A DNA stretch of 64,000 nt from Candidatus Sulfomarinibacteraceae bacterium. GTDB taxonomy: Bacteria > Acidobacteriota > Thermoanaerobaculia > Thermoanaerobaculales > Sulfomarinibacteraceae. The notes under the pieces are model-generated. The model saw nothing but the letters and a program-made list of their open reading frames with translations. It was not told the origin of the DNA and did no database searches. The translations under genes were made by a program, and so were the position numbers. The stretch lies in contig CAVUHO010000003.1 of the NCBI GenBank assembly GCA_963741385.1, positions 512,695 to 576,694 of the forward strand, read 5' to 3'. Below, piece by piece: positions 2,761-63,582 of the stretch. Numbering within the stretch: position 1 is the stretch's first letter; each line of letters begins with the position of its first letter.

Positions 2761-2997
2761 GAATTCGGAATTCGGAATTCGGAATGCCGGCTCTGTTCGC
2801 TCCCCAGCCGCGTGTGGCACGTATCCGAACGCGTTTCCCGGGAGGAGCCACCCGCAACATTGTTGGCTCGCATCGTCCTACCGGCGGCGGCACCCGGGCA
2901 CCCAACAATATTGCAAATGGCACCTCCGCCGCACGCGGACCTATCCGGCAGGGCGCTGACCCGAAATTCCGAATTCCGAATTCCGAATTCCTAATTC
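2761..2997. mobile_element. Heptamer-bounded intergenic element with family-A hairpin
   Basis: (GAATTCG)n at the left end, inverted (CCGAATT)n at the right end supplying the MCP stop codon. Internal GGAGGAGCCACC..AACATTGTTGG-35nt-CCAACAATATTG..TGGCACCTCC inverted repeat. Confidence 0.75.
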
Positions 2998-4577
2998 TCT
3001 TCGTAGCGGAACCTCGCGACCAACCGCTTGAGATCGTTGGCCATCACCGCCAGCTCCTGGGCGGCGTGCTGGGTCGCGGTGGCTCCGGTCGCCGTGTCCT
3101 GGGTGGCGGTGGCCACTCCGGCAATGGTGCTGGCGATGTCCGAGCTGCCCTTCGCCACCTCGCTCACGCTGCGGCCGATCTCGTTGGTGGTGGCGGTCTG
3201 TTCCTCCACCGCGCTGGCGATGGTGTTCTGGGTCTCATGGATCTGCCGGATGATCATCGCGATCTGTTTGATCGCGGCCACCGCACTGCGGGTGTCGCGT
3301 TGGATCGCCTCCACCCGCTTGCTGATTTCTTCGGTGGCCGAAGCGGTCTCCTTGGCAAGCTCCTTGACCTCGTTGGCCACCACCGCGAAGCCCCTGCCGG
3401 CTTCTCCAGCCCGCGCCGCTTCGATCGTTGCATTGAGCGCCAACAGATTTGTCTGCTCGGAGATCGACGTGATCACCTTCGTGACATCGCTGATTCGCGA
3501 ACTGCTCTCGTCGAGCTGCGCGATCGTCCCGGTCGTCGTTTCCGCCACCTGAACCGCCGTGGTCGCGACCTTTGCGGCCTCGTTGGCGCTCTGCGCGATC
3601 TCGCGGATGCTGGAGGTCATCTCTTCGATGCCGGTGGCGACGGTCTCGACGTTGCGGCTGACCTGTTCGGCGGAGGCAGACACAACAGTGGCCTGCGAAG
3701 AGGTCTCCTCGGCGCTCGCGGCCATCTGTTGGCTCACCCCCGTCATCTGTTCGGATGCGGCGTTCAGGGAGGAGGCGTTTTCGGCGATGGTTCTGATGGT
3801 ATCTCGCATGTGGCTGAAGGCCTTGTTGAGAGCCCGGCTGGTCTGGCCGACCTCGTCGTCACCACCGACGCTGATTCGCCGTGACAGATCGCCGTTGGCG
3901 ACCTGGCCCGCGATGTCGACGACCTCCGCCAGTGGTTTGACGATGGAGCGTGTCAGTGTGATGGACAGGGCGCCGAGCGCACACGCGACGACCAACAGAA
4001 CAAAAAACACTGAATTCCGGGCGCGTCGCTGGCTGGAACGGACTTTGGCGACGGCCTGGTTGGTCTCGAGGCGAGCGCTCTCCGCGAAGCGCTCAAGGCT
4101 GGCCTTGATTCCGAGGTAATCCTCTTGCATCCGTCCGAGCGCGGCAGAAAGCGCGTCGCCGGCCTCCTGCGCGATCAACCTCCGGGTGGTGTCGCGAGCG
4201 AGATCGTAGTAGTCGTTGAATGATGCAGCGAGGCCCTCGCGCTCAGCAGGGTCCATGGTGGGATTGTTGCGTTCGCTGTCGAGCCGTGCCGCGAACGACG
4301 CGCTGAGGTTGTCGGTTTCCGCGAGGATGCTCGGATCTGCAGCCAAGGCGGCATCCTGGAGACCTCGCTGGATCTGAGCGAGGGTCTCCACCAGGTCGCG
4401 CGACAGCTCGAGCTTGGGAATGTACCCGCTGTCGATCTGTTCCACCAGCCCTTCGGTGTGGCCGGCGCTCAATTGGACGGCGACAAAAATGACGATGATC
4501 CCCGCCGCCGCCAGCGCCGGCATCAGGAACACTTTGTGGGAGAACTTGAGTCGACTCAGCACGATCCACCCCCGCAC
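2991..4577 (-). CDS. Methyl-accepting chemotaxis protein
   Basis: Two TM helices, [38 protein letters not shown] signalling hairpin. Confidence 0.95.
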
Positions 4578-4614
4578 GGAAAGTCCACGCCGCTATCTTG
4601 GAACGTGGCGGAGT

Positions 4615-5058
4615 TCACCGGACTGTGACCTCGAGCACCTTGACGCCGGCGCCGAGCGACGCAGTGGACGACACGTAGCCGACGGCGCCTGGGTTGGCCC
4701 GGACGAAGGCGAGAACTTCGTCGTCAGAGGCCTTTTCCGGTGGCGGTACGCCGCGGCCGGAGAATATCTGGCGCTGCCAGTAGCTTTTCACCGCGTTGAC
4801 GTCTCGATCGTGAACCGTTGTTGAAAACTCGATCCGGACGGGAGAGTTCGCCGAAAGATCCACCGGCGTTATGGTCTCGCCGTTGATCCAGGTGTTGGTC
4901 TGTTTCATGAAACACCGCGACAGCTGTTCCTTGCTGATCGAGGTTGTGGTGTTCGACGCGTTGACCACAACTTTGAATCCCGGCTCGGCCGCCGTGGCCG
5001 GCATGACGGTTGCCGCCATCGCGATAGCGACCGCCACGAACTGAGTTGAAATCCGCAT
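4615..5058 (-). CDS. Small exported PBP-like (phosphate-ABC substrate-binding-like) protein
   Basis: Signal peptide from MRISTQF; VVVNASN...YWQRQIFSGRGVPP...VRANPGAVGYV, typical of the small PBP-like family found between porin and MCP genes. Confidence 0.75.
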   Translation of the reverse strand: MRISTQFVAVAIAMAATVMPATAAEPGFKVVVNASNTTTSISKEQLSRCFMKQTNTWINGETITPVDLSANSPVRIEFSTTVHDRDVNAVKSYWQRQIFSGRGVPPPEKASDDEVLAFVRANPGAVGYVSSTASLGAGVKVLEVTVR

Positions 5059-5072
5059 GGTAATGCCCTCAC

Positions 5073-6912: not shown

Positions 6913-6959
6913 GCGCATTTCAGGATCATCTGGCGTGGATTGACTTTGCCCACGACGTT

Positions 6960-7258
6960 CCCGGGAGGAGCCACCCTCAACATTGTTGGCCCGATTCGTC
7001 GTGCTGACGAGGATATCCGTGATTCCAACAATGTTGAAAGTGGCACCTCCGCCGCACGCGGCACGTATCCGCACGGTTTTCCCGAGAGGAGCCACCTTCA
7101 CCATTGTTGGACCGAGACGTCTCTGCCGACGTGGATGATCGTGAATCCAACAATGGTGAAAATGGCACCTCCGCCGCAAGCGGCTCGTATCCGCACGCCC
7201 GGTCGGATTTTGCGATGAAATTCCTAATTCCTAATTCCTAATTCCTAATTCCTAATTC
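6960..7258. repeat. Two tandem family-A hairpin units plus (AATTCCT)n heptamer array
   Basis: Units at about 6962-7075 and 7083-7195 with 35- and 36-nt loops. The array at 7216-7258 supplies the ltaE TAG. Confidence 0.85.
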
Positions 7259-8298
7259 GCCCTCAGCACCTTCTCCGTCACCGCCACCGCCCGCTCAATG
7301 TCCTCATCCGTGATGTGGTAGTGCGTCACCATCCGGATACTTTCGCCGCCCAACGGGTGGCACAGGATGCCCTCTTCGGCGAGCCGGGCCGCGAGCCCTT
7401 TGGCATCCAGCGGTGAGCTGCCGGAGAGCGAAAAGAAGACGATATTCGTCTCGACCGTTGCAGGGTCGAGAACGACTGCGGGAAGGGCGGCCAGCCCGTC
7501 GGCCAGTCGCCGGGCGCGATGGTTGTCTTCGGCAAGCCTCGGGAGCATCTCGTCCAGGGCCACCAGACCCGCAGCCGCGAGGATGCCCGCCTGCCGCATC
7601 CCGCCGCCGAACATCTTGCGCACCCGGCGTGCTTCGGAAATGGTGTCGGTGTCGCCGACCAGCATCGAGCCGACCGGAGCCCCGAGCCCCTTGGAGAGGC
7701 AGAACATGACGGTGTCGCAGCCCGCCGCCAGGTCAGCGGCAGGGGTCCCCAGGGCGGCCGCCGCGTTGTGGATGCGGGCTCCGTCGAGGTGGAGGGGCAG
7801 CCCGTGCCGTTTCGCCACCGCAACCAACTCGGCCATTCGCCCGGGCGGCGTCACCCGGCCGCCGGCCAGGTTGTGGCTGTTTTCGAGTACCACCAGCGAG
7901 GTCGGCGTTCGATAGCCTGCCGGAGGCTGGATGGCCGCCTCGACCTGGCTGGGCGTGAGGATTCCGTCCGGAGTCTGGATCGGCCGCGGCAGGGTCCCGG
8001 AAAGCGCCGCCATCGCGCCCATTTCGAAGTTGAAGACGTGGGCGCCGGCTTCGGCCACGACCTCGGTGCCCGGGTGGGTGTGGACGTGAATCGCGATCTG
8101 ATTCCCCATCGTCCCGCTTGGAACGAACACCGCGGCCTCGCGGCCGAGCAGCTCGGCGGATCGTTCCTCGAGGCGGTTGATCGTGGGGTCTTCGCCATAG
8201 ACGTCATCGCCGACGTCGGCGGCGGCCATTGCCCGTCGCATGGCCTCTGTAGGTTGTGTTACCGTGTCCGATCGAAGGTCGATAGGTGTGTGTTGCAT
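7252..8298 (-). CDS. ltaE: Low-specificity L-threonine aldolase
   Basis: [44 protein letters not shown] (PLP lysine), GGGMRQAG. Confidence 0.95.
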
Positions 8299-14814: not shown

Positions 14815-16026
14815 ATGCACGGTAAAGTACTGGACATCACCACCGAGACCCGACGCCTCAACGGGGTCGTGCGTCCGGCACTGGTCATCTGCGCGATTCT
14901 GGCAGTGGTTGGTTTCGGCGGCTCGTTGATCCTGGCGCGCGCCACCGAAAACGGCATGGACCACCTGCTCGAGACCTATCTGGTGAGTTTCGCGTTCTTC
15001 CTCAGCATCTCGCTGGGCGGCCTGTTCTTCGTCCTTCTCGAACACTGCACGAGGGCGGGGTGGAGCGTGGTGGCGCGGCGGGTGGCCGAAGCGATCGCGG
15101 CCAATGTGTGGTTGATGGCCGTTCTCGTCATCCCGGTGGTCCTCGGCATGCACCACCTCTATCACTGGTCCGACGCCGCCGCCGTGGCCCACGATCCCTT
15201 GTTGGCGGGCAAGACCGGGTTTCTCAATCCGACCTTCTTCATGATCCGTCTCGCCATCTACTTCCTCATCTGGGGTGGGCTGGCGACCTTCCTCCACCGC
15301 ACGTCGGTGGCCCAGGACGCGAGCGGCGATCCGGCCCTCACCCTGCGGATGGAGCGCCTCAGCGCGCCTGGCATGGTCGTCTTTGCCCTGAGCCTGAATT
15401 TTGCTGCATTCGACCTCCTGATGTCGCTCGACCCCCACTGGTTCTCGACGATCTTCGGCGTCTATTATTTTGCCGCCTCGGTAGTGGCCTTCTTCGCGGT
15501 GATGCCGAAGATCCTGTGGGCCCTGCAGTGGCGGGGCATTTTGAAAAACGCCATTACCGTCGAGCACTACCACGACATCGGCAAGCTCCTGTTCGCCTTC
15601 GTGGTCTTCTGGGCCTACATCGCCTTTTCCCAGTACATGCTGATCTGGTACGCCAATGTCCCCGAGGAGACCCAGTGGTTTCTCAAGCGTCAGACAGGCG
15701 AGTGGACGACGGTCAGCCTGCTCCTGATCTTCGGCCACTTCGTGGTGCCGTTTCTGCTCCTGGTTTCGAGGTTCATCAAGCGCCGGCCGCTGCTGCTGGC
15801 CATCACCGGCGGTTTTGTCGCCGTCATGGGCTGGGTCGACATGTACTGGCTGGTGATCCCGGAGTTCAGTCCCGGCGTCGCTCGATTCGGCCTCCTCGAC
15901 ATCCTGTGCTTTCTCGGCATGAACGGGGTGTGGTCGGCGGCCGTCGTGTGGCGCCTCAGCCGGCACTCGGTCATCGCCGAGAAAGACCCGCGCCTCGAAG
16001 AGTCTTTGGTTTTCGAAAGCGCCTAA
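14815..16026 (+). CDS. actF: Alternative complex III ActF membrane subunit
   Basis: About 10 TM segments, DLLMSLDPHWFSTIFG, HDIGKLLFAF, FSQYMLIWYANVPEET. Confidence 0.9.
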   Translation: MHGKVLDITTETRRLNGVVRPALVICAILAVVGFGGSLILARATENGMDHLLETYLVSFAFFLSISLGGLFFVLLEHCTRAGWSVVARRVAEAIAANVWLMAVLVIPVVLGMHHLYHWSDAAAVAHDPLLAGKTGFLNPTFFMIRLAIYFLIWGGLATFLHRTSVAQDASGDPALTLRMERLSAPGMVVFALSLNFAAFDLLMSLDPHWFSTIFGVYYFAASVVAFFAVMPKILWALQWRGILKNAITVEHYHDIGKLLFAFVVFWAYIAFSQYMLIWYANVPEETQWFLKRQTGEWTTVSLLLIFGHFVVPFLLLVSRFIKRRPLLLAITGGFVAVMGWVDMYWLVIPEFSPGVARFGLLDILCFLGMNGVWSAAVVWRLSRHSVIAEKDPRLEESLVFESA

Positions 16027-16030
16027 AAAT

Positions 16031-16137
16031 GAATTATGAATTTTTAATTTTTAATTTTGAATTGCCTGCACTCGTGCGGCGGGGCCCGGGGGAGGTGGGG
16101 AGGGAATTCAAAATTCATAATTCAAAATTCAAAATTG
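16031..16137. mobile_element. Minimal heptamer-bounded element inside the act operon
   Basis: (AATTTTG-like)n immediately after the actF TAA, G-run motif at 16081-16104, inverted (CAAAATT)n ending at the GGAG RBS of the next gene. Confidence 0.75.
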
Positions 16138-16146
16138 GAGCCTCCC

Positions 16147-16428
16147 GTGCGTTATGACGATCCAAATGTCGCCGCGTCGGCGGTAGTGGGGATCATCTCC
16201 GCGATCCTGCTGTTCGTGATCATCGTCGTCCTGCAGGCGTATTTCTTCAACGCGGAGCAGGCCGAGTTGGAGAAGAAGGTCTGGTCCCAGCCCAACCAGG
16301 CTCTCCAGCAACTCGACGCCGGCCAACTCGAACTGCTTTCGAGCTACTCCTGGGTGAGCGAGACCGACGGCGTCGTGCGGATTCCCATCGAGCGCGCCAT
16401 GGAGCTCGTCGCCGCTGAAAAACGGTAG
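16147..16428 (+). CDS. ActG-like small membrane subunit of alternative complex III
   Basis: Single TM, C-terminal YSWV...GVVRIPIERAMELV motif; GTG start after GGAG. Confidence 0.75.
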   Translation: MRYDDPNVAASAVVGIISAILLFVIIVVLQAYFFNAEQAELEKKVWSQPNQALQQLDAGQLELLSSYSWVSETDGVVRIPIERAMELVAAEKR

Positions 16429-16435
16429 ACGGTTC

Positions 16436-16517
16436 AATTCGGAATTCGGATTTCGGAATTCGGAATTAGAATTTCGGATTTCGGATTTCGGATTTCGGAT
16501 TTTTCGCCCAGCCCTCC
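16436..16517. repeat. Heptamer array (AATTCGG/ATTTCGG) with degenerate G-run motif
   Basis: About nine units starting 8 nt after the actG stop, followed by TTTTCGCCCAGCCCTCC. Confidence 0.85.
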
Positions 16518-16531: not shown

Positions 16532-16756
16532 TCAGGCGGCGGTGATCTCGGTCCTGGCCCTTCGAACCACTCCCATTCCTCTTTTTTGGGAAGCGGACGA
16601 CTCATCTCGGTTCGTGGATCCGACGTAGCGGATCACCTGATCGGCTATCGATTTGAGTGGAGCCGGAACCCTTCTGACCAGCGAAATGGCATCACCAGCT
16701 GCTTCGAGGGCCTTGCTGACAGCGATGAGATCGGTGTACGCGCGGACGTTGGACAT
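16532..16756 (-). pseudogene. Truncated four-helix-bundle protein (TIGR02436-like) gene
   Basis: GGAGG RBS, then MSNVRAYTDLIAVSKALEAAGDAISLVRRVPAPLKSIADQVIR. Similarity stops where the conserved S-x-x-S-[IV]-x-AN motif is expected (about 16628). Confidence 0.6.
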
Positions 16757-17071
16757 GGTCACCTCCGGGTCGTTCATACCCTCCCCCAAGCCGGTGCGGC
16801 AGCCGATGTCAAGGGTGCAACGCACCGGGCTTTAGGAGCGTGGAGTGCATAGCATTGGCGGCGCCTTTCGGGTGTCGTTTGGCCCATTTTTTGGCGAGTT
16901 CTTGGCCCGTACCACCAGTATGGACCTGCAAACTCGCCAAAAAATGACCTCAAACGCCCCTCCGAAATCCATCCACCATCTATGCACTCCACGCTCCTTG
17001 GCCCGGCTTGCCCTTGACATCGGCTGCCCACCGGCTATCCCCCCCATTGAACGACCCGGAGGTGACCATGT
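16753..17071. repeat. About 320-bp imperfect inverted duplication
   Basis: Paired blocks TGAACGACCCGGAGGTGACCATG, GCAGCCGATGTCAAGGG, GGAGCGTGGAGTGCATAG and CATTTTTTGGCGAGTT, symmetric about 16912. Confidence 0.85.
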
Positions 17072-17278
17072 TCCCGGTCGCTGTTCCCGGTCGCTGTTCC
17101 CGGTCGCTGGAACCGGACGTTGAACCTGCCGCTGCCCGCTGAACCTGTCGCCGATCCCAGTCTTTGCCGCTGGGTGCTGACGCTGTCGCGGCCGCTGCAA
17201 ACTCATCCCTTTCACCTAAATCTGTATCAAAACGGGATTTTGCCGCCCGTCGGATATCATAGGTGTGGGGCCGGATCC

Positions 17279-29992: not shown

Positions 29993-30238
29993 GAATTTCG
30001 GATTTCGGATTTCGGATTTCGAATTTTCATCACAGCTACCCGCGAAGGGTGCGGCGAACGAGACGTGCGGGAAGGGCGTGGGGGAAGATGGGTCGTTGAC
30101 GGCTCGCCTACAGATTTTCATGGCCTTGTTTGTGATTATCGGATGCCCTTTCGCGGGTCATCTGAATCATGAACCACCGCGGTGTGGCGCGCCGTCAAAT
30201 CCGAAATCCGAAATCCGAAATCCGAAATCGCGAATCCT
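29993..30238. mobile_element. Heptamer-bounded element between convergent genes
   Basis: (ATTTCGG)n right after the MCP TGA and inverted (CCGAAAT)n right after the permease TAG; internal ACCCGCGAAGGG...CCCTTTCGCGGGT inverted repeat. Confidence 0.75.
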
Positions 30239-34377: not shown

Positions 34378-34528
34378 CCGTGAGGATGCCAGGCACGCCG
34401 CAATGATGTTGAGGACAACATCATGGCGGGAGCCAGGCACCTCCGCCGCACGCGGCTCGTTTCCGCACTCGCTTCCCGGGAGGGGTGGGTGGCAAATCCG
34501 AAATCCGAAATCCGAAATCCGAAATTCC
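34378..34528. repeat. Family-A variant hairpin, G-run motif and (CCGAAAT)n array
   Basis: ATGATGTTG-AGGA-CAACATCAT hairpin, GGCACCTCCGCCGCACGCGG, GGGAGGGGTGGGTGG, four to five heptamers. Confidence 0.8.
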
Positions 34529-36638: not shown

Positions 36639-37041
36639 TGGCACCTCCGCCGCACGCGGCTCGTTTCCGCAGGCGGTTGCTGGCGGCCTGCGGCCGCCGC
36701 GACCCACCCTGGCCAGCGAGTGGCCGATGGCCGACCACCACCCATCCTACCGTTTCGGCCGTCGGCCACGAATCGCTGCCTCGGGTGGGTTCCCGGGAGG
36801 CCTCCGCCGCACGCGGCACGTTTCCGCAGGCGCTTCCCGAGAGGAGCCACCCTTGACATTGTTGGCCCATGATCTCCTACCGGCAGTTCGATGGGGGGAG
36901 TCCAACAATGTCAAAAGTGGCACCTCCGCCGCACGTGGTCCCACCCACCCTGAGCACTCGGACTTTCATTGTCGGTGGGGGGGTGGGCGGGAAATCCGAA
37001 ATCCGAAATCCGAAATCCGAAATTCCTAATTCCTAATTTCC
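36639..37041. repeat. Family-A repeats, G-quadruplex motif and heptamer array
   Basis: Three CCTCCGCCGCACG copies, one full hairpin (36-nt loop), GGGGGGGTGGGCGGG, then (CCGAAAT)n(CCTAATT)n. Confidence 0.8.
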
Positions 37042-38661: not shown

Positions 38662-38664
38662 AAT

Positions 38665-38865
38665 GAATTCTCAATTTTGAATTTTGAATTTTGAATTCGG
38701 AATGCCCCTCGAACACCTGAGGGGGCATCAACATCAAGCCACTTCAAAACCTCGATCGTTGAGGTGGCCGCTTCTCTGGCCTTCAGCTGCCGGACTCCTC
38801 ATCGTTGCAAGAGCGAGGGAGGGTGGGCGGGAATTCAGAATTCAAAATTCAAAATTAAGAATTGT
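38665..38865. mobile_element. Heptamer-bounded element with perfect G-quadruplex motif
   Basis: (AATTTTG)n after TGA; GGGAGGGTGGGCGGG at 38817-38831; inverted (CAAAATT)n containing the citrate-synthase TAA. Confidence 0.78.
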
Positions 38866-41202: not shown

Positions 41203-41430
41203 TTCGGAATTGGGAAATAGGAAGGAATTAGGAATGCCACCCGCCCTCCCGGCAGCCGGGACGGCTGCCCCACAAGCGCTCATGAAAGACTTGTGGGGCA
41301 CGCGTCTCGCGTGCCGGGTGGGTGGTTCCGGCCCCGCCCCCCTCCCGGCAGGCGGGGCCTGTGGCTTGAGGTAGGGGGATCGCGCTGAATCACCCTCGAA
41401 TCTCAAGCCTCAAGCCTCACGCCTCAAGCC
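41203..41430. repeat. Degenerate heptamer array, G-run motif, family-B REP doublet and (CTCAAGC)n
   Basis: CCACCCGCCCTCCC, GGCAGCCGGGACGGCTGCCCCACAA...TTGTGGGGCACGCGTCTCGCGTGCC, four CTCAAGC-like units. Confidence 0.75.
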
Positions 41431-44125: not shown

Positions 44126-44425
44126 GATTTTGGATTTCGGATTCCGGATTTCGGATTTTCGGCAGCCGGGACGGCTGCCCCACAAACGCTTCGGGATGGT
44201 CTTGTGGGGCACGCGTCTCGCGTGCCGTGTGCGGCGGAGGTGGAATTTCAACGTTGTTGGGCGCATGAATCTTCACGTCGGTGGCGGGCCACGGGCCAAC
44301 AATGTTGAAGGTGGCTCCGCACGGGTAGGGCGTGCGGAAACGAGCCGCGTGCGACGGAGGTGCCTGGCATCCCGGCATGATGTTGTCCTCAACATCATGG
44401 CGGCGTGCCTGGCTCCTCTCGGGAA
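44126..44425. repeat. Mosaic of heptamer array, family-B doublet and two family-A hairpins
   Basis: (ATTTCGG)n at 44126-44160, B doublet at 44161-44226, reverse family-A units at 44230-44420. Confidence 0.8.
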
Positions 44426-47139: not shown

Positions 47140-47251
47140 GGCAGCCGGGACGGCTGCCCCACAAAAATCCTCGGAGATAAAAGGGATAAAAAGGGAATCG
47201 GGCCGACGGAGAATCCGAAATCCGAAATTCAAAATTCAAAATTCAAAATTT
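47140..47251. repeat. Single family-B REP and heptamer array
   Basis: GGCAGCCGGGACGGCTGCCCCACAA; (CCGAAAT)(CAAAATT)n at 47211-47251. Confidence 0.8.
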
Positions 47252-47326
47252 CGCGATGTAGTTGACCTCCCGCCGCCTCTGTGACAACGTTTGCCCGCCG
47301 ACTGAGAGTTCACGCAGGAGGCCCCG

Positions 47327-48925: not shown

Positions 48926-49152
48926 GGCGGGACCACGCGGCACTGCTGAGGTGCAGTCGGTGACAATCATCTCTCTCATGACGGTCGGTGATCTCGTTTC
49001 CGCAGCCGACTGGACCGCTCACGAGGGCTGAGCGCCCGGTCGCCGGGCCGTCGGGCCCTACCTCCAACGCGACCTGGACGGATGCTTCCCCTGTGTCATC
49101 TCGGACCCAATTCGGACATGGGGATGCTGTGACTTGGGTCACGGCTTGGGCT

Positions 49153-54760: not shown

Positions 54761-55058
54761 GTGGGCGGGTCATATACGGCCCGCCGGGAAAATGTCGTTG
54801 TGGTGGCAGGCCCTGAAGGACCTGCCTACGGTTTTCACAACACCATCGCAGAGTTCCGTGGCGGCGGGTTCAGGGCCCGCCCGTGGGATGTGTGTGAACG
54901 CGAGAGGTGCGGGGGCAGAGAAACGATTCCCCTGCCGCCCGCCCGGCAGCCGGGACGGCTGCCCCACAAAGGCGGTGCCATTCGCCAGATTGTGGGGCAC
55001 GCGTCCCGCGTGCCAGATGAGCGGAAACTCAAAACTCAAAACTCAAAACTAAGAACTC
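54761..55058. repeat. REP cluster (GTAG/GTGG family C x3, family-B doublet) plus (AAAACTC)n heptamers
   Basis: GTAGGCAGGTCCTTCAGGGCCTGCC-type hairpins, B doublet at 54945-55014, array at 55024-55058 directly after the cytochrome stop. Confidence 0.8.
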
Positions 55059-55060: not shown

Positions 55061-57289
55061 TCACGGCATGCGCCGGCCGGATGGATGGCGGATCATGAGC
55101 ATCGGTTCGCCGATCGCGATGGTGTCGGTTCTGGTGCACGTGGCGCTGTCGGCGGTTACCGTCAGCAACCAGCTGTAGGAACCCGGCGTGTCGTAGGAGT
55201 GGGAAACGCTTGACCCGGAGGCGACTCCGCCGTCACCGAAGTCCCACTCGAATGTCGCGGTCCCCGTGCAGTCGCTGAGCACGGCGCTTCCCGAGAACGA
55301 CGCCGCGCTGCCGGCGTGGCCGGTCGCGTCAACCGACGCCGTGCAGCTCACGGTGCAGGTGCCGCCCGCTCCGGCGACGGTGATGGTGCCGGTGCCCAGG
55401 TTGGAGTTGGTCGAGCCGTCCCACGCGGCGTAGGTGAAGCTGTCGGTGCCGCCGGAGCCGGTGAAGGGATAATACGTGGCGACCGTGCCGACAAGACCGA
55501 CGGTGCCGTTCTTCGCCTGCGACACGATGCGCAGGGAAAGGCTGTTCCCGTCGGCGTCGCTCGCCGACAGCGCGATCTGCACCGGCGTGTTCCCGTTCGT
55601 CGACGCCGTGACGTTGTGCACCACCGGCGCGCGGTTGCTGTTGCTGTTTTCGCTGTTCGGTCCGTTGTGGCAGGTGTAGCAGCCGATCTGGAATCCCTGC
55701 CAGAAGTTCTTGGTGCCGAACGCGGACACCGTGCGGCTTCCCAGCGCCCGCGACAGCACGGTGCCGCGGTAGTCATTGCCGTGGCAGGTGCGGCACCGGC
55801 TGGAGTTGCTCTCGGCGGCGTCCGTGTGCCGGCTGACCCAGTCCTGGCCCACCGGGTGCATGCCGTGCGGCCCGCCGGTCACGGTCTGCGGTTGGGTGCC
55901 GTGGCAAACGGCGCAGTCCGCCAGGACCCCGGCGTGCCCCTGCAGATCGATGTTCTGGACGTTGTCGTTGAGGTGGCTCGACGGGAAGATGGCGTGGGTG
56001 GAGCCGTGGCAGGCCTCGCACTGGAGGTTGCCGTGGCCGGTCGAGAACCGGTAGAGCGAGACGCCGGCTGCGGGAGTGTTCGGGTCGGTGGCGAAGGTGT
56101 TGTTGACCGCGACCCGCGGCTGATCCGGCGCGACGAAGGCCGTCACGTAGCGGATCTGGCCGTTGTTGTCGATCGCCGTGCCGGTGTGGCACTGCTGGCA
56201 GTTGGGCTGGTCGAACCACCCCGCGCGGCCGGTTGCGCCGACCCGGCTCATGCTGCCGTGACAGCTCTGGCACTGGATGGCGAGGTCGCCGTTGGCGGCC
56301 ACTGCGCTGCCCATCGCGCCGCGCAGACAGCGGGTGTCGGAGCCCGGGTGGCAGGTGTAGCAGGCGGAGCGGTTGGCCGACTCGTTGAGCGTCATTCCGT
56401 TCGAGGGATCGGTGACCCCTGCGTGAAAGCTGTGGATCGCCTGGGTGAGCGGCGGGACACCGCTGAGGCCGGTCCCCGGAAGGGCGTTCGAGGCGTGGCA
56501 GGCGTCGCACAGGATCGGCGTGCTGTCGGCGGTGACGGTGTCGTACAACCCGCCGGAGTTGTAGCCGGCAGCGGCGAGGGCAGCGGTGTACTGATCCCTA
56601 CCACCCTGGAGGTCGTCGTGGAGCAGGAGCACATTGAAGCGGTAGTCGAGCTCGGGGTCGGGATCGTAGATCCACCCTCCGCCCGGCCTCGCCGCGGGGC
56701 CGGAGCCCGAGCTGTGGCACGCGGAGCAGGTCATCTCGTCCGACACCGGGAGCACGATGCTGGTTGTGGCGAGCACCTGGCCGGAGGCGTTGCGGGCCAC
56801 CAGCTTCATCATCGGGTAGTAGTTCTTGGCGTGGGCGTCGTCGTACGGCGTGATCGGGATGCCCTCGGCGCTGAACCAGTCGTACCCGGTGTCGAAGTGC
56901 ATGGGCTGCGGCGTGTTGACCGATCCCGGCATGTCGTGGCCGGCGAGCCCCTGATCGGGAGCGAGCGATGCGCCGAAGAGCTGCGTCACCCAGTCCCAGA
57001 AGTTGGTCTTGTTGATCGACGAGACGTTGATCGACCCGGTCGGATCGGCCACCGCCTCGTAGGTGACGGTGATGCTTCCCGGGTTGGTCACAAGGTTGCC
57101 CGAGGCGTCGATCAACTGGGCGTGGATGACGTTGTAGGGTGGGAGGATGCTGAACACCGAGTAGTCGGCGTCCATGCAGTGCATGCCGAGGTCGTTCCAG
57201 CCGACGAGCTTGTAACCACCCCCCTGTGCGGCGGCGAGGGGCGCGATGAGTGCGAGGGCCAGTGTGGCGAAGACGGACTTTCCAGTCAT
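55061..57289 (-). CDS. Exported nine-heme cytochrome c with Ig-like and PKD domains
   Basis: Signal peptide from MTGKSV, WNDLGMHC, nine CxxCH motifs, NRAPV..DADG Ig/cadherin-like domain, WDFGDG PKD, basic tail RHPSGRR. Confidence 0.88.
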   Translation of the reverse strand: MTGKSVFATLALALIAPLAAAQGGGYKLVGWNDLGMHCMDADYSVFSILPPYNVIHAQLIDASGNLVTNPGSITVTYEAVADPTGSINVSSINKTNFWDWVTQLFGASLAPDQGLAGHDMPGSVNTPQPMHFDTGYDWFSAEGIPITPYDDAHAKNYYPMMKLVARNASGQVLATTSIVLPVSDEMTCSACHSSGSGPAARPGGGWIYDPDPELDYRFNVLLLHDDLQGGRDQYTAALAAAGYNSGGLYDTVTADSTPILCDACHASNALPGTGLSGVPPLTQAIHSFHAGVTDPSNGMTLNESANRSACYTCHPGSDTRCLRGAMGSAVAANGDLAIQCQSCHGSMSRVGATGRAGWFDQPNCQQCHTGTAIDNNGQIRYVTAFVAPDQPRVAVNNTFATDPNTPAAGVSLYRFSTGHGNLQCEACHGSTHAIFPSSHLNDNVQNIDLQGHAGVLADCAVCHGTQPQTVTGGPHGMHPVGQDWVSRHTDAAESNSSRCRTCHGNDYRGTVLSRALGSRTVSAFGTKNFWQGFQIGCYTCHNGPNSENSNSNRAPVVHNVTASTNGNTPVQIALSASDADGNSLSLRIVSQAKNGTVGLVGTVATYYPFTGSGGTDSFTYAAWDGSTNSNLGTGTITVAGAGGTCTVSCTASVDATGHAGSAASFSGSAVLSDCTGTATFEWDFGDGGVASGSSVSHSYDTPGSYSWLLTVTADSATCTRTDTIAIGEPMLMIRHPSGRRMP

Positions 57290-57557: not shown

Positions 57558-57797
57558 GTAGGCGGGTCCTTCAGGGCCCGCCCGGCAGCCGGGACGGCTG
57601 CCCCACAAAGGCGGTGTGGCCTCATCGCCGGATTGTGGGGCACGCGTCCCGCGTGCCGGTTGGGCGGGCGGGATTTCAATTCACCCTCGAATCCCCTCAC
57701 TTCAGGGGGAGGGTGGGCGGAAAATCCGAAATCCAAAATCCGAAATCCGAAATCTAAAGCCCAAAATTCCGAATTCCAAATTCCGAATTCGTAATTC
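57558..57797. repeat. REP C, family-B doublet, G-run motif and heptamer array (distal copy)
   Basis: Shares GGGAGGGTGGGCGGAAAATCCG...CCGAAATCTAAAGCCC with 59599-59680. Confidence 0.85.
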
Positions 57798-57867
57798 AGT
57801 ACCGATACCACTCCGCCTTGTACGGCCCTTCCACCGGCGCGTGGACCTCTCCCGCCCGCTCCTCCAT
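57796..57867 (-). other. 23-codon mini-ORF ending in a duplicate of the AhcY C-terminus
   Basis: MEERAGEVHAPVEGPYKAEWYRY-TGA; its ATG overlaps the upstream TAA (TAATG). AhcY ends [17 protein letters not shown]. Confidence 0.8.
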
Positions 57868-59111
57868 TAACGCCGTGGAGCGGCAAACCGCCACACGTCG
57901 TTGTCGACGTTGAGGTAGTTCAAGGGGTCGAAGAAATTGAAGGTCTCACGGTCGCCTCCGAAGGTGAGGATGGACGGACGCCAACCCCTCCCCGAGCCCC
58001 ACACGACTAGGGCGTCGAAGTCATACTTGATATCCTCCGGCCCGCCGGCGTTCCACGGCGAATCGCTGACCTGGTCCCAATCCCTGCCATTCTTGCTGAC
58101 CCAGACATCCATCGGATTGGAAGGTTTGAACGGGTCCGTCGGGTCGGTGCTGAGTCCGAAACCGCCGAACAGCACGATCTGGTTGAAAACCACTACTGCC
58201 TGGTGGCCCGGGCGGGCAGGCCAAGGCGCTGCGTCCGTCACGAGTTGCCAGTTGCTGCCGTCCCGCGATCGCCAGACGTCGTTGTAGTAAGGGGGGCAAC
58301 GATCGCCGGATTCGCACGTGAAACCGTCCTCGCCTCCGATCAGGTAAAGGTAACCGTTCTTCGACACGACGATCGCTCCGGCGCGCGGCGCCCATGGCGC
58401 GTGGTCGGTGACCTGGAACCAGTGAGCGCCGTCGAAGGACTTCCAGACGTCGTTGAAGTACACCCGCTCAGGCTGTCCGCCGACGATGGATGAGTCATCG
58501 TTGAACGACCCGGCCATCACGTAAATCGCCCCGCGGTGGACGACCGCTGAGAGGCCGGCCCGCCCCGCCCAGGGAGCGGCGGCCGTCATCTGCCGCCAGT
58601 TGACACCGTCCCGGCTCCGCCAGACGTCGTTGAAAAACTCTGACGCCGGGACAAACGGCGGGCACTCCGATGGAAACGGCGGACATTCGTTCTCGACGAC
58701 GTTGAAGTTCTGTCCGCCAAGTATGTACATGAAGCGGCCCATCGTGACGGCCTGGAAGTAGGCTCGCGCGGGCCAGTGGTTCTCATCGTCGGTGAAAAGT
58801 ACCGGATCCCAGGATTCGCCGAGATCGTCGCTCGCCCACACGTCGCCCCAGATGATGCTCGCTCCTGGGACAGGCACCACCGCCGGATCAAGGGGCGTGC
58901 GACCACCCATCACGTACAACCGCTTGCCCAGTTGCACAGCTTGCAGGCCGGCCCGGGGCGCCCACTGTGCAGCGGGGTTTTGAATGTCCCACTCCCAGGT
59001 TTCAATGTCGTTGATGCTCCACCATTTCTCCTCCTGGGCGACAGCCGATGAAGTTGAAAAGAGGATCAGAGCCGCGACGATGCCAAAGAGAGCTCGAGAG
59101 CGCATGGACAT
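57867..59111 (-). CDS. Secreted Kelch-like beta-propeller protein
   Basis: Signal peptide; repeated APW..RAG...YV.GG...NDVWRS.DG..W units. Confidence 0.82.
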   Translation of the reverse strand: MSMRSRALFGIVAALILFSTSSAVAQEEKWWSINDIETWEWDIQNPAAQWAPRAGLQAVQLGKRLYVMGGRTPLDPAVVPVPGASIIWGDVWASDDLGESWDPVLFTDDENHWPARAYFQAVTMGRFMYILGGQNFNVVENECPPFPSECPPFVPASEFFNDVWRSRDGVNWRQMTAAAPWAGRAGLSAVVHRGAIYVMAGSFNDDSSIVGGQPERVYFNDVWKSFDGAHWFQVTDHAPWAPRAGAIVVSKNGYLYLIGGEDGFTCESGDRCPPYYNDVWRSRDGSNWQLVTDAAPWPARPGHQAVVVFNQIVLFGGFGLSTDPTDPFKPSNPMDVWVSKNGRDWDQVSDSPWNAGGPEDIKYDFDALVVWGSGRGWRPSILTFGGDRETFNFFDPLNYLNVDNDVWRFAAPRR

Positions 59112-59211: not shown

Positions 59212-59598
59212 GGGCGGGATTTGCTCGGGCCCCTCCACCCGGCAGCCGGGACGGCTGCCCCACAAAAGGGGTGCGGCCTCATCGCCGGATTGTGGGGAAC
59301 GCGTCCCGCGTGCCGGGAGAGCGGGCGGGATTTGCTCGGGCCCCTCCACCCGGCAGCCGGGACGGCTGCCCCACAAAGGTGATGCGGCCTCATCGCCGGA
59401 TTGTGGGGAACGCGTCCCGCGTGCCGGGAGAGCGGGCGGGATTTACTCGGGCCCCTCCACCCGGCAGCCGGGACGGCTGCCCCACAAAGGTGATGCGGCC
59501 TATTCGCCGGGTTGTGGGGCACGCGTCCCGCGTGCCGAGAGAGCGGGCGGGATTTGCTCGGGCCCCTCCGCCCGGCAGCCGGGACGGCTGCCCCACAA
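59212..59598. repeat. 111-bp tandem REP-doublet array (about 3.5 units, BIME-like)
   Basis: GGCAGCCGGGACGGCTGCC at 59241, 59352, 59463 and 59574; near-identical linkers. Confidence 0.92.
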
Positions 59599-59711
59599 GG
59601 GAGGGTGGGCGGAAAATCCGAAATCCGAAATCCGAAATCCGAAATTCCTAATTCCGAAATCCGAAATCTAAAGCCCGAAATTCAAAATTCAAAATTCAAA
59701 ATTCAAAATTT
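59599..59711. repeat. G-run motif plus compound heptamer array abutting the ahcY stop
   Basis: GGGAGGGTGGGCGG(AAATCCG)n...CTAAAGCCC(CAAAATT)n-TTA. Confidence 0.9.
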
Positions 59712-61122
59712 AATAGCGGTACCACTCCGGCTTATACGGCCCCTCCACCGGCACGTCGATGTACTTCGCCTGCTCGGGGGTCAGCTTCGTCAGCCTGGCG
59801 CCGAGCTGGTCGAGGTGGAGCCGCGCCACTTCCTCGTCGAGCTTCTTCGACAGGGTGGTGACGCCGACTTCATGCTCGTTCTGCCACAGGTCAAGCTGCG
59901 CCAGCACCTGGTTGGTGAAGGAGTTCGACATCACGAAGCTCGGGTGCCCGGTGGCGCAGCCGAGGTTGACCAGCCGGCCTTCGGCGAGCAGGAAGATGGA
60001 GTGACCGTCGGGGAAGGTGTACTTGTCGACCTGTGGCTTGATGGTCGTCTTGACGATCCCCGGCCATTTCTCGAGCTTTTCGACCTGGATCTCGTTGTCG
60101 AAGTGGCCGATGTTGCAGACGATGGCCTGGTCCTTCATCCGGCTCATGTGCTCGGCGGTGATGATGTCGCGGTTGCCGGTGGTGGTGACATAGATGTCGG
60201 CGATCGGCAGGGCATCCTCCACCGTCATCACCCGGTAGCCTGCCATGCACGCCTGGAGCGCGCAGATCGGGTCGATCTCGGTCACGCAGATCTGCGCCCG
60301 CTGGCCGGCCAGAGACTCGGCCGAGCCCTTGCCGACGTCGCCGAAACCGCAGATCAACGCGACCTTGCCCGAGATCATGACGTCGGTGGCGCGCTTGATG
60401 CCGTCGACCAATGACTCGCGGCAGCCGTAGATGTTGTCGAACTTCGACTTGGTGACCGAGTCGTTGACGTTGATCGCGGGCACCAGCAGCTCGCCGCGCT
60501 CGGCCATCTGGTAGAGGCGGTGGACGCCGGTGGTGGTCTCCTCGGAGACGCCTTTCCACTCACTCACCACATCGTGCCAGCGGCGGGGCTCGACGCCCTG
60601 CACTTCCTGGAGGAGCTTGTTGATGATCTGCAGCTCCTTGTTGTCGGTGGGCTCGGTCAGGATCGACGGGTCGTCCTCGCCCTGGTAGCCGCGATGAATG
60701 AACAGCGTGGCGTCGCCGCCGTCGTCGACGATCAGCTGAGGCCCCTTGCCGCCGGGAAAGGAGAGGGCCTGTTGGGTGCACCACCAGTACTCCTCGAGGG
60801 TCTCGCCCTTCCAGGCGAAGACCGGGGTGCCGCCCGCCGCGATGGCGGCCGCCGCGTGGTCCTGAGTCGAGAAGATGTTGCACGAGCACCACCGCACATC
60901 GGCGCCGAGATCCGCGAGCGTCTCGATCAGCACCGCGGTCTGGATGGTCATGTGCAGGCTGCCCATGATGCGAACGCCCTGCAGTGGTTTCTGCGGACCG
61001 TACTTCGCCCGGGTCGCCATCAGCCCCGGCATCTCCTTCTCCGCGATCTCGATCTCGCGCCGGCCCCAGTCCGCCAGGGCAATGTCCTTCACTTTGAAAT
61101 CGGTGGTCGTCGACGTGGTCAT
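59710..61122 (-). CDS. ahcY: Adenosylhomocysteinase
   Basis: [59 protein letters not shown]. Confidence 0.98.
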
Positions 61123-61233
61123 GGCTCGTCCTTTCTTGAGAGAACCGATCGCAACGACGATGAGTCGTGCTGACCGGATGTGTTGCGGGGCAGGATTCTA
61201 TCGCATCATCGACATATGAGATAATTGCTTTGG

Positions 61234-61785: not shown

Positions 61786-61851
61786 CGGGTCGAAATCAGT
61801 TTCGATCCGCTAAATCAAACTAAATCAATAGGTTGCACATGCAATCATAGT

Positions 61852-61859
61852 GCGGTAGC
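61852..61859 (+). promoter_or_regulatory. ops-like element
   Basis: GCGGTAGC matches the core of the RfaH ops consensus GGCGGTAG; lies between the NusG paralogue and the operon. Confidence 0.55.
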
Positions 61860-61873
61860 CTCGCGAAGAGCGC

Positions 61874-62474
61874 AATTTTGAATTCTCAATTTTGAATTTT
61901 GAATTATTGGATCGAAGGCTAGTGAGAGGTTCGAGAGCGCCAATGAGAACCCGATGAGCGACAACCTCCAATACGAGCACTTCGACGGCGGTGCCGATTG
62001 GGTCGGGGTTGCGGATGCGTCCGAGAATCCAGTTCGGGAGAAGAGCTACCAATTCGCTCTGGCGGTCATCAGACTTTACGGCCGTATCCAGGAGCAGAGG
62101 GAGTACGTGATCTCGAAGCAACTGCTCCGATCTGGCACCAGCATCGGTGCCAATGTTGAAGAGGCGATCGCGGCGGAGAGTCGGCGGGATTTCGTCCACA
62201 AGATGGCGCTCGCATCAAAAGAAGCTCGCGAGACCGTGTATTGGCTGCGACTCCTGTCCGATTCGGATCTCGTCCCAGATCTGGATGCCTCCAAAGAACT
62301 CGGTTCTGCACAAGAACTCGTCCGCCTGCTGACCTCAATCGTCAAAACGACCGCACAGAGCCGGTGACCGGCCGGAAATATGACTCACTCGTCCTTTGTC
62401 GATGAATTTACTCGAATGCACCCTGGGCACCGCTGCCCGCAATTCAAAATTCAAAATTCAAAATTCAAAATTCG
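61874..62474. mobile_element. Heptamer-bounded element carrying an intact four-helix-bundle gene
   Basis: (AATTTTG)n at 61874-61908 and inverted (CAAAATT)n at 62440-62474 flank the ORF. Confidence 0.75.
61954..62367 (+). CDS. Four-helix-bundle protein (TIGR02436 / 23S rRNA IVP family)
   Basis: KSYQFA, SKQLLRSGTSIGANVEEA, DFVHKM..ASKEARETVYWLRLL. Confidence 0.92.
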   Translation: MSDNLQYEHFDGGADWVGVADASENPVREKSYQFALAVIRLYGRIQEQREYVISKQLLRSGTSIGANVEEAIAAESRRDFVHKMALASKEARETVYWLRLLSDSDLVPDLDASKELGSAQELVRLLTSIVKTTAQSR

Positions 62475-62507
62475 ACCTCGTGATTGCGCCTGGAGCATCC
62501 ATCAGCC

Positions 62508-63533
62508 ATGACTTCACCTGAAAGCAAAACCGTCCTCGTAACAGGAGCGGCCGGTTTCATCGGCTATCACCTCGCCGAGCGGCTGCTCGGCGACGGGCGG
62601 CGCGTGATCGGCCTCGACATCGTCAACGACTACTACGATCCTGCCCTCAAGGAGGCGCGGCTCGAGCGGCTCGCCGGCCACGACGGGTTCACCTTTGCCC
62701 GCATCGATCTCGCTGACCGCCGCAAGATGGAGGCGCTCTTCGCCACCTACGGGTTCGACACGGTGGTCCACCTCGCCGCCCAGGCGGGCGTCCGCTACTC
62801 CATCGAAAACCCGCACTCCTACGTCGAGTCGAACCTGGTGGGTTTTCTCCACATCCTCGAGGGCTGCCGCCACACCGGGGTCAGCCACCTGGTCTATGCC
62901 TCGTCGAGCTCGGTCTACGGCGCCAACACCGCCATGCCCTTTTCGGTGCACGACAACGTCGACCACCCGATGTCGCTCTACGCTGCAACCAAGAAGGCCA
63001 ACGAGCTCATGGCCCACACCTACTCGAACCTCTACGACCTGCCGACCACGGGCCTCCGCTTCTTCACCGTCTACGGACCGTGGGGCCGACCCGACATGGC
63101 GCTCTTCAAGTTCACGAAGAACATCCTCGCCGGCCAACCCATCGATGTCTTCAACCACGGCCACCACCGGCGCGACTTCACCTACATCGACGACATCGTC
63201 GAAGGCGTGGTGCGGGTGATGCACAAACTCCCCGAACCCAATGCCGAGTGGTCTGGAGACAACCCCGATCCGGGCACGAGCCGCGCTCCCTGGCGGGTGT
63301 ACAACATCGGCAACAACCAGCCGGTCGAGCTCATGCGCTACATCGAGGTCATCGAGGAATGCCTCGGCAAGAAAGCCGAGATGAACATGCTTCCCCTGCA
63401 GCCCGGCGACGTCCCCGACACCTACGCCGACGTCACCGCCCTCACCGACGACGTAGGCTACAAGCCCGACACACCGATCGAAGAAGGCATTCGGAAGTTT
63501 GTTGAGTGGTACCGAGAGTATTACCAGGTTTGA
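62508..63533 (+). CDS. NAD-dependent epimerase, UDP-glucuronate 4-epimerase-like
   Basis: [47 protein letters not shown]. Confidence 0.93.
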
Positions 63534-63582
63534 ATTTCGGATTTCGGATTTCGGATTTCGGATTTTTCCCCCTCCCGCCCCC
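63533..63582. repeat. Heptamer array plus G-run motif starting at the epimerase stop
   Basis: TGA-(ATTTCGG)4-ATTTTT-CCCCCTCCCGCCCCC. Confidence 0.88.

Follow-up and report, generated by a model that had tools for sequence, protein, structure and literature searches.

A 64,000-nt stretch of the genome of a Candidatus Sulfomarinibacteraceae bacterium (contig C3, positions 512695-576694; hereafter the window) contains genes of the PF05635/TIGR02436 family that lie between two inverted tandem arrays of seven-nucleotide units, and heptamer arrays of the same kind, mostly without such a gene, occupy gene junctions throughout the genome. The enclosure of PF05635 genes by inverted arrays is seen in four phyla and ties the heptamer arrays and the PF05635 proteins together physically. 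We read the arrays as the arms of palindromic cassettes that are built like the intervening sequence (IVS) of 23S rRNA and have gene-less derivatives, with a pentameric protein that would recognize approximately five repeats; we give this reading about an even chance of being correct. The link between arrays and PF05635 genes across phyla seems to be new, and the arrays themselves seem to be a new member of a known, unexplained kind; in the open literature we found no general account of heptamer arrays bracketing PF05635 genes. Two puzzles are decades old, namely the nature of intergenic heptamer arrays and the role of the widespread PF05635/TIGR02436 proteins. If the protein reads the arrays, both become directly testable, and the arrays would mark a new small element or regulon.

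PF05635 genes lie between inverted heptamer arrays

The source genome comprises 4.77 Mb in 17 contigs with 64% G+C. Genes were called from codon statistics, giving 3936 genes (86% coding) with exact stops and approximate starts; tandem arrays were detected with Tandem Repeats Finder (TRF), both in the window and genome-wide; and PF05635 genes were identified with Pfam, their flanking arrays being scored with TRF at low stringency. The PF05635/TIGR02436 four-helix bundle is related to Avd, the accessory protein of diversity-generating retroelements, according to the available text of an earlier paper (PMC10053308). Pfam identifies three PF05635 genes in the genome, and the window holds a truncated fourth. 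All three are enclosed by inverted arrays, with the units AATTTTG (61954-62367), ATTTCGG (63663-63935), and GGGCTTG/TCAAGCC (the copy on contig C10). Scored in the same way, 29 of the 3936 genes (0.7%) are enclosed, and the arrays of ordinary genes usually point away.

The arrangement recurs among relatives. In genomes of the same genus (congeners; individual genomes compared here carry labels such as G007), the 30 best PF05635 loci have inverted arrays on both sides in 18 cases and on one side in 3, and further loci of the PF05635 subfamily that we designate IV have them on both sides in 4 of 5. A phylum-wide sample of 121 Acidobacteriota genomes includes 64 with PF05635 (the tally includes G063 and G088, flagged as unpublished; no locus and no other claim depends on either). 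Short-period arrays occur on both sides of 26 of 30 acidobacterial loci from 30 genomes, 19 of them with period 7 on both sides and the rest with periods 8-10, and the flanks have a significant inverted match to one another at 24 of the 30. A tblastn search for plasmid-borne homologs returned 37 records, mostly from Nostocales, from which we examined ten loci (from Nostoc, Anabaena, Picosynechococcus, Geminocystis, Pseudanabaena, Stanieria, Leptolyngbya, Gemmatirosa, and Azospirillum). Each of the ten is flanked by 7- or 8-nt arrays left and right, and in eight the nearest arrays are, by eye, reverse complements. The arrays that flank PF05635 genes have a median of 4.6 units, with 70 of 113 between 3.5 and 5.5. 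Around the same gene in more distant phyla, period-7 arrays are rare, occurring at 2 of 76 loci.

Three of the plasmid genes sit inside CRISPR-cas operons, in the order cas6-gene-cas4 or cmr2-gene-cmr3, on plasmids of Anabaena sp. 90, Picosynechococcus PCC 7003, and Pseudanabaena galeata (loci L282, L283, and L287). The upstream array in Anabaena sp. 90 consists of approximately 20 copies of a 14-mer. The presence of the PF05635 family in cas loci is noted in the accessible part of an earlier survey (PMC3936711). Several cyanobacterial plasmid cassettes (L281, L283, and L289) have a purine-rich upstream array that resembles a ribosome-binding site (TCAGGAG, AGGAGATA, GAGATAGG). Arrays of TCAGGAG bracket the plasmid copy of Nostoc punctiforme. 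Since the downstream array in these cassettes complements the upstream one, the ribosome-binding region of the PF05635 gene would be masked when the arms pair.

An earlier annotation of the window from its letters alone (hereafter the original prediction) had described four-helix-bundle genes as recurring cargo between arrays. The three such genes of the window (61954-62367, 63663-63935, and 16535-16825) are indeed all beside arrays, and the description carries over to the genome, genus, phylum, and plasmid loci counted above.

A polarized family of arrays adjoins gene ends

Genome-wide, TRF returned 827 period-7 rows, which reduce to 580 arrays at a score of at least 40 and a unit with at most 4 G+C. 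The preference for this period is pronounced: arrays of at least three units number 461 at period 7, versus 19 at either of the neighboring periods, 6 and 8. Three unit classes, ATTTCGG (243), AATTCGG (118), and AATTTTG (110), together account for 471 of the 580 arrays. These main units carry at most two adjacent G and cannot form a G-quadruplex by themselves. Length is similarly narrow, with 293 of the 580 arrays spanning 32-34 bp, 500 having 4 or 5 units after rounding, and a mode of 4.6-4.7 units; some arrays are expanded to 9-39 units. At 21 of the 22 sites cited in the original prediction we recovered a TRF period-7 array, along with all of the unit variants it had quoted. The remaining site, given as 41203, does hold an array (41213-41234), with a period of 11 rather than 7.

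Most of the arrays (517 of 580) lie outside called genes. Taking the strand with more G than C as the reference, the 5' end of the G-rich strand adjoins the nearest gene in 454 of 512 intergenic arrays (binomial p=3e-77; a first tally gave 449 of 512). A stop codon is adjoined by 275 arrays, at a median gap of 5 nt. The median distance between array and gene is 15 nt, versus 42 nt when positions were randomized within the same intergenic regions (200 trials, minimum 36). Occupancy depends on gene orientation: when intergenic regions of 60 bp or more are counted, arrays are found in 29% of those between convergent genes, 17% of those between genes in the same direction, and 9% of those between divergent genes. 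Neighboring arrays separated by at most 300 bp mostly converge: 115 pairs do so, 1 pair diverges, and 49 pairs share one direction. The earlier claim of a single family polarized at gene ends therefore stands, both against random orientation and in the comparison with shuffled positions that it had suggested. All five inverted pairs that it had listed (2761-2997, 16031-16137, 29993-30238, 38665-38865, and 61874-62474) are real, and such pairs do form termini around cargo of very different sizes.

Paired arrays are predicted to form long hairpins

Arm pairs inside one intergenic region share a unit class in 65 of 96 cases, versus 26% expected by chance (p=1e-17). The spacer between the arms, with a mode of 35-50 bp, contains in order a C-rich box CCCNCCCNCCC, a short loop, and a G-rich box, so that the complete unit of approximately 110 bp is expected to form a single long hairpin; predicted energies range from -18 to -80 kcal/mol. 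The C-rich box follows 287 of 576 arrays, compared with 45 in a control on the opposite flank that used a shorter stretch, and its complement reads (GGGN)3-4. The gene-ward polarity follows from this anatomy, because the arms point into the intergenic palindrome and the outer end of each arm adjoins the gene. The arm units of gene-less hairpins equal those of PF05635 cassettes, and gene-less copies are many, a relationship that resembles that of MITEs (miniature inverted-repeat transposable elements).

Approximately half of the arrays have no detected partner, and a cryptic one was found for 48 of 322 single arrays, versus 6 in a control. After many single arrays comes a copy from one or the other of two dispersed repeat families. 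Family A has a 122-bp unit, present as two tandem copies at 6958-7197 and in many copies in congeners; at the equivalent junction, G007 has at least seven tandem copies. Family B has a 111-bp unit, present as 3.5 tandem copies with 96% identity at 59212-59598. The tandem blocks of both families are bounded by the C-box and G-box motifs and have arrays attached.

Mismatches between arms include 18 G-U and 22 A-C combinations on the sense strand, with 92% of positions Watson-Crick (58 pairs). RNA-level selection on the stems, which we considered as the source of arm complementarity, was rejected because G-U is not favored over A-C; in this small test, the lack of a G-U excess favors copying at the DNA level. 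A role as intrinsic, bidirectional terminators was also rejected. In both reading directions a U-rich arm precedes the GC stem and an A-rich arm follows it, the reverse of a GC hairpin with a U tract. A telomerase-like or break-healing origin of convergent arrays and a snap-back cDNA origin of the palindromes were weighed as well and have no evidence in their favor. Among Rfam families, only tRNA was found in the window.

Array units correspond to PF05635 subfamilies and to dispersed arrays

The unit around a PF05635 gene tracks its subfamily: AGCYNTT for subfamily I, GTTAAGG for II, GGGCTTG for III, GATGCNN for IV, and, in the subfamily to which the window gene belongs, AATTTTG or AGTTTTG. 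Much of this match reflects common descent of syntenic loci, but the unit types of subfamilies I and IV are retained at nonsyntenic loci as well, and in subfamily IV, GATGCNN-type units occur at 7 of 9 loci, several of which are not syntenic.

The same units are dispersed through the genomes that carry the genes. In the source genome, 528 of 580 arrays differ by no more than one mismatch from a flanking unit of the three resident PF05635 genes. Three tandem copies of AGGGATC, the unit around a PF05635 gene of G143, have 107 matches at dozens of places in that genome and none in four others, and GGGACCT and GAGACGG are likewise restricted to the family carrying them, a smaller effect than with AGGGATC. 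GATGCTG, the unit that flanks the best PF05635 gene of G015, has 230 matches in that genome, versus 3 in the source genome. Subfamily IV was found in 6 of 11 GATGCTG-rich genomes versus 1 of 14 poor ones (Fisher p=0.02, an overstatement because the genomes are related). G011, which is 95% complete, has no PF05635 match; its arrays are degenerate at one junction and absent at a second, and none of three exact array patterns has a match in it.

Array positions are old and their structure turns over

The array (ATTTCGG)4 is present in 20 of 24 congeners versus 0 of 16 genomes of the sister family. Using five congeners with long syntenic contigs, we compared the junctions of the window: those with arrays also have arrays in 42 of 47 congener comparisons, versus 0 of 103 for array-free junctions, and the array positions are therefore old. 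The junction between genes ending and beginning at 16026 and 16135 has an inverted pair in every congener in which it was recovered (18 rows from 17 genomes), with a length of 117-123 nt in 13 of the 18 rows, and its unit varies jointly in both arms (TGAATTT/AAATTCA, TGAGTTT/AAACTCA, GAATTAG/CTAATTC, GAATTCG, and others). By eye, the array is missing from junction 16428/17455 in at least 3 of 10 relatives, and junction 6912/7252 ranges from 93 to 907 bp across relatives with nested elements. Positions are thus old with occasional gain or loss, and the structure at each turns over while the arms stay complementary. The original prediction had pictured a currently mobile system that targets gene ends, a picture that these conserved positions do not support. 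In the comparison with relatives that it had proposed for finding empty sites, presence or absence was seen at a few junctions, and neither a clean empty site nor a duplication could be brought into alignment.

PF05635 cassettes multiply and invert

The number of PF05635 copies per congener ranges from 0 to 70. G007 has nine copies of a cassette of approximately 850 bp that are 98-100% identical and contain the PF05635 gene only. In addition to arrays, this cassette has terminal inverted repeats of its own (GGTTCATCCGG...), and it sits among AACGTTN heptamers that number 1 to 4.5 per side with a sum of approximately 6-8.5. In 2 of 4 pairs of orthologous loci, the stretch enclosed by the arrays has the opposite orientation with respect to its flanks.

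The larger intervals between convergent arrays, 20 in number, contain ordinary housekeeping genes (among them CoaE, glucokinase, Hsp33, an LpxC fusion, PfkB, peptidase M3, and Smr) or give no Pfam hit, and their cargo was found to include neither a transposase nor an integrase nor a reverse transcriptase. Twelve Y1_Tnp (PF01797) genes of approximately 325-345 aa are present in the genome, four of them within 12 kb on contig C4 (5706-17653) and the others at eight places. A link to transposases of the RAYT type (REP-associated tyrosine transposases, where REP denotes repetitive extragenic palindromic sequences) was rejected, as none of the twelve has an array within 1.5 kb. The genome also contains three identical reverse-transcriptase genes with 499-aa frames (C8:174480, C8:337585, and C10:1126233) and near-identical Pfam scores. 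They probably represent a retroelement in several copies, for example a group II intron, and we found nothing that links them to the arrays.

Elements in the window

The arrays and cassettes of the window are collected in Table 1. Positions 2739-2760, which separate the array at 2761 from the stop of gene 1212-2738, form a perfect GC hairpin with two GCGGCCGC sites (gcggccgcattgcggccgc). The junction of the array at 7219-7258 has an array, with other units, in 3 of 4 congeners, and that of the pair at 29995-30234 has arrays in 4 of 4. The hairpin at 16030-16136 fills its junction from the stop of gene 14815-16026 to the ribosome-binding site of the next gene. In the truncated PF05635 remnant (16535-16825, minus strand), residues 24-70 share 77% identity with the beginning of a congener's multicopy PF05635 protein; the remnant itself scores below the Pfam threshold. 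Part of the remnant lies in a segment of approximately 497 bp (16629-17125) with long inverted ends, which is absent from three congeners that have a 60-bp palindrome instead and which is skipped by one metagenome contig (joint 16628->17126, run X4, among the contigs of four DNA runs). Its parts 16627-16831 and 16833-16998 are dispersed repeats in many congeners.

Orthologs of the full cassette at 61874-62473 in G004, G010, and G021 have AATTTTG or AGTTTTG units, and the right arm of the second cassette (GAAATCC) lies just outside the window, at approximately 64149-64185. Two long open reading frames (ORFs) overlap at 47243-48979 (minus strand) and 47327-48925 (plus strand), of which the gene caller took the plus-strand ORF; the array at 47212-47250 adjoins the stop of the minus-strand ORF, suggesting that the latter is the real gene. 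For the genes from approximately 47.3 to 61.1 kb, no syntenic counterpart was found in any of the five congeners compared, and they may constitute a strain-specific island, with arrays at 55025, 57722, and 59614. On the practical side, in GC-rich genomes such arrays interrupt assemblies and lead gene callers astray, and they provide a simple signature for finding cassettes.

Table 1. Heptamer arrays, hairpins, and cassettes of the window (positions count from its first nucleotide; subscript-style numbers after a unit give its copies)
Feature	Coordinates	Strand	Context and composition	Basis
Array (GAATTCG)3.6	2761..2785	+	left arm; 22 nt past stop of 1212-2738(+)	TRF
Family-A copy as pair cargo (...GGCGGAGGTGCC...AACATTGTTGG...)	2786..2964	.	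same family tandem at 6958-7197	sequence
Array (AATTCCG)4.7	2965..2997	-	right arm; overlaps stop of 2991-4577(-)	
Array (AATTCCT)5.7	7219..7258	-	at stop of 7252-8229(-); two family-A copies precede	
Minimal hairpin	16030..16136	+	(TGAATTT)4.9, 41-nt spacer ending in G-tract box, (AATTCAA)4.6	
Array, 9.3 units (TTCGGAT/AATTCGG)	16438..16502	+	10 nt past stop of 16135-16428	
Truncated PF05635 remnant	16535..16825	-	beside arrays; partly in segment 16629-17125	
Convergent pair (ATTTCGG)4.6 ... (AAATCCG)5.3	29995..30234	.	between stops of 28003-29991(+) and 30239-31453(-)	
Solo array (AAATCCG)4.6	34494..34525	-	34 nt 5' of start of 34559-36025(+)	
Abutting arrays (GAAATCC)4.7 + (AATTCCT)2.6	36991..37038	-	5' of FxsA gene 37059-37469(+)	
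Convergent pair (TGAATTT)4.9 ... (GAATTCA)4.7	38664..38863	.	between stops of 37546-38661(+) and 38855-39985(-)	
Array (CTCAAGC)4.1, GGCTTGA class	41402..41430	-	55 nt from stop of 41485-43989(-)	
Array (GATTTCG)4.7	44126..44158	+	137 nt 5' of start of 41485-43989(-)	
Arrays (AATCCGA)2.4 + (AAATTCA)3.7	47212..47250	-	adjoin stop of ORF 47243-48979(-); gene assignment unsettled	
Array (AAACTCA)4.9	55025..55058	-	at stop of 55061-57289(-)	
Array (AAATCCG)9.3	57722..57787	-	80 nt from stop of 57867-59111(-)	
Family-B tandem (59212-59598), then (AAATCCG)7.7 + (AAATTCA)4.7	59212..59710	-	arrays end at stop of 59710-61122(-)	
Full cassette	61874..62473	+	(AATTTTG)4.6, PF05635 gene 61954-62367 (Pfam E=4e-23), (AATTCAA)4.7	
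Second cassette	63534..64000	+	(ATTTCGG)4.6 from stop of 62508-63533; partial PF05635 ORF 63663-63935 (E=1.5e-8)	

Discussion

The cassette reading builds on what is observed: the architecture, the bracketing in four phyla, the units of the subfamilies, the units shared with dispersed arrays, the covarying arms, the flipped cassettes, and the bursts in copy number. A full member would consist of a PF05635 gene between two inverted arrays of approximately 4.6 heptamers, with the G-rich strand of each arm running inward, and the approximately 580 arrays would mostly be its gene-less relatives, in the form of hairpins of approximately 110 bp, pairs around families A or B, and solo arms. The closest solved homolog of the PF05635 protein, 2rld, has five chains, and a Xanthomonas homolog is described as a pentameric toroid in a work cited in the accessible part of a study of the Coxiella IVS (PMC4990558). 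By this homology the protein is predicted to be a pentameric ring, one of which might bind each array with one subunit per repeat, both in cis and in trans; the match between approximately five repeats per arm and a ring of five subunits would be the specific core of the model. The protein may bind or propagate the arrays. When transcribed, the arms could pair into a stem of approximately 30 bp and be cut by RNase III, as in rRNA intervening sequences, and such cutting would make intergenic insertions harmless; the genome has one RNase III gene (rnc). Arm complementarity would be kept by copying at the DNA level.

A broader and more tentative proposal, which we think is possible and would not bet on, is that reading of approximately five heptamers by a PF05635 pentamer is general, that the gene with its inverted arrays represents an unrecognized class of small cassettes found bacteria-wide, and that polarized arrays are its gene-less offspring. 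These would include the short tandemly repeated repetitive (STRR) heptamers of cyanobacteria, the GGGAATC repeats of Xanthomonas, the gene-less intervening sequences of rRNA, and possibly the TAACTGA repeats.

Several observations weigh against the cassette reading. Approximately 580 arrays stand against three PF05635 genes in the genome, two of them damaged, and 9 of the 30 PF05635 loci in the genus have no flanking arrays. Array number and PF05635 copy number are uncorrelated across genomes (Spearman 0.16, p=0.46, ATTTCGG class), which runs counter to the co-occurrence anticipated for array density and four-helix-bundle copy number. G017 has the most GTTAAGG arrays, yet no subfamily-II gene was found in it with the query used, and G009 and G003 are rich in GATGCTG arrays, with subfamily IV not found in either. 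The side-to-side variation in heptamer number around the G007 cassettes, at a steady sum, looks like insertion into a pre-existing array, making arrays the targets; similarly, the sharing of units could reflect cassettes landing in arrays that a genome already has. The old positions imply that most arrays are not freshly mobile, presence or absence was seen at few junctions, and no pair of empty and filled sites with a target duplication was found. We infer both binding and cleavage, RNase III processing of the stems being proposed by analogy, and the gene calls are crude with approximate start coordinates.

Some of these same observations would be expected if the arrays and hairpins were host cis-elements, such as stems for RNA processing or stability or insulators at operon boundaries, into which PF05635 cassettes prefer to insert, with the protein unrelated to their function. 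We regard this as rather unlikely, albeit a serious alternative. The conservation of positions across the genus fits it, as do the constant length and complementarity of the 16026/16135 hairpin despite changes of unit, the excess of arrays between convergent genes, and the G007 cassette that seemingly lies within pre-existing AACGTTN arrays. Random insertion, however, predicts that the commoner ATTTCGG, AATTCGG, and AATTTTG units would surround subfamily IV, whereas GATGCNN is found instead, and the bracketing holds on plasmids of other phyla and within cas operons. Selection at the RNA level is not visible in the arm mismatches, and the order of U-rich and A-rich arms is the reverse of that in an intrinsic terminator. 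Polymerase slippage beside GC-rich palindromes, which would make the arrays functionless simple-sequence repeats and their link to the protein incidental, strikes us as improbable. The slippage view is the one taken for heptameric repeats in the available text of PMC4692102, citing Mrazek 2007, where heptamers are described as over-represented among repeat periods in large GC-rich genomes; the expanded arrays of 9-39 units and the differing unit numbers of near-identical cassette copies are in line with it. Slippage would nonetheless predict decaying lengths and locus-specific units rather than a sharp mode at 4.6-4.7 units and three classes for most arrays, and it does not account for inverted partners that share a unit or for enclosure of 60-100% of PF05635 loci versus 0.7% of ordinary genes.

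A further explanation invokes a system of REP sequences or their hairpin-forming doublets (REPINs) moved by a Y1, RAYT-like transposase, or else MITEs of a classical insertion sequence. The genome does have Y1_Tnp genes, the elements are palindromic, intergenic, and mosaic like bacterial interspersed mosaic elements (BIMEs), and the G007 cassette possesses true terminal inverted repeats. RAYTs are normally flanked by their own REPs, however, and no array lies near any of the twelve Y1 genes; no GTAG or CGTC tag was seen, by eye, in 52 spacers and 45 flanks; and the intervals between convergent arrays contain no transposase, integrase, or reverse transcriptase. The arms, free in sequence and fixed in period and length, are also unlike transposase recognition sites, and we consider this explanation very improbable. 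We hold similarly little hope for the idea, after the quadruplex proposal for GGGAATC, that the active part is the G-tract/C-tract box, as a G-quadruplex or i-motif, with the arrays as mere spacers. The box follows about half of the arrays with a (GGGN)3-4 complement, and the repeats of PMC4692102 form quadruplexes in vitro according to the part of that paper available; even so, the other half of the arrays have no box, and in pairs the C-box faces a complementary G-box, so that a hairpin competes. Moreover, ATTTCGG and AATTTTG units cannot form quadruplexes, yet in polarity and preferred copy number they agree with the Xanthomonas repeats, which weakens the quadruplex explanation for the whole class.

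Comparison with known systems

Intergenic heptamers have been met before. Tandem heptanucleotides of the STRR type in Nostocales were reportedly described by Mazel et al. in 1990, and small dispersed or mobile repeats nested in heptamer arrays are said to have been reported by Elhai et al. in 2008. The closest parallel is with the GGGAATC and GGGGA(C/T)T repeats of Xanthomonas and Nostoc, which are polarized and for which no function was found (Rehm et al. 2015, PMC4692102; comparisons here refer to the available portion of that paper). Like the acidobacterial arrays, they have a period of 7 and a preference for approximately four units, are intergenic, form convergent pairs (70-75 per genome there), and almost always lie nearer the 5' neighbor gene whatever its direction. 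Their G-rich strand is the coding strand after a stop and the noncoding strand before a start, as it is here; they are scarce between divergent genes, and they recur at corresponding junctions of related species, where their length and sequence vary. The acidobacterial units differ in being AT-rich and unable to form G-quadruplexes themselves, with a separate G/C-tract box, and in belonging to a different phylum. In the same portion, S23, four-helix, and intervening-sequence proteins have no occurrences.

The TAACTGA direct repeats of Beggiatoaceae, Cyanobacteria, and Bacteroidetes, for which a trans-acting binding protein is suspected, are likewise intergenic heptamers in 2-6 copies with a fixed orientation to genes (MacGregor 2015, PMC4679880, in the sections available). 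Unlike the arrays described here, they are mostly single forward arrays just 5' of starts, with a single inverted pair reported and one unit for the whole genome; S23 or four-helix proteins are not mentioned in those sections. REPs, BIMEs, REPINs, and MITEs resemble the present elements as short palindromic intergenic repeats that are mosaic, nested, enriched at 3' ends, and, in part, gene-less derivatives of larger elements. They differ in that the elements here have no RAYT (0 of 12), no conserved terminal tag, arms of tandem repeats with varying sequence, and no visible target-site duplication.

The architecture of the cassettes themselves is most like that of the 23S rRNA IVS. According to the available text of Warrier et al. 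2016 (PMC4990558), the IVS of Coxiella contains an S23p (PF05635) ORF and a 28-bp terminal stem, equal in length to four heptamers, that is cut by RNase III, with tandem GACAGAT heptamers at the 5' arm that differ in number from strain to strain; versions lacking the gene are present in other bacteria, and the IVS is regarded as a selfish element. The cassettes described here lie between protein genes (and on plasmids also in cas operons) rather than in the 23S rRNA gene at helix 25 or 45, they are accompanied by hundreds of gene-less copies, and cutting by RNase III has been shown for the IVS only. In both systems, a PF05635 ORF occupies the loop of a stem of approximately 28-30 bp formed from terminal inverted repeats, as in the cassettes at 61874-62473 and from 63534 onward and in all three PF05635 loci of the genome.

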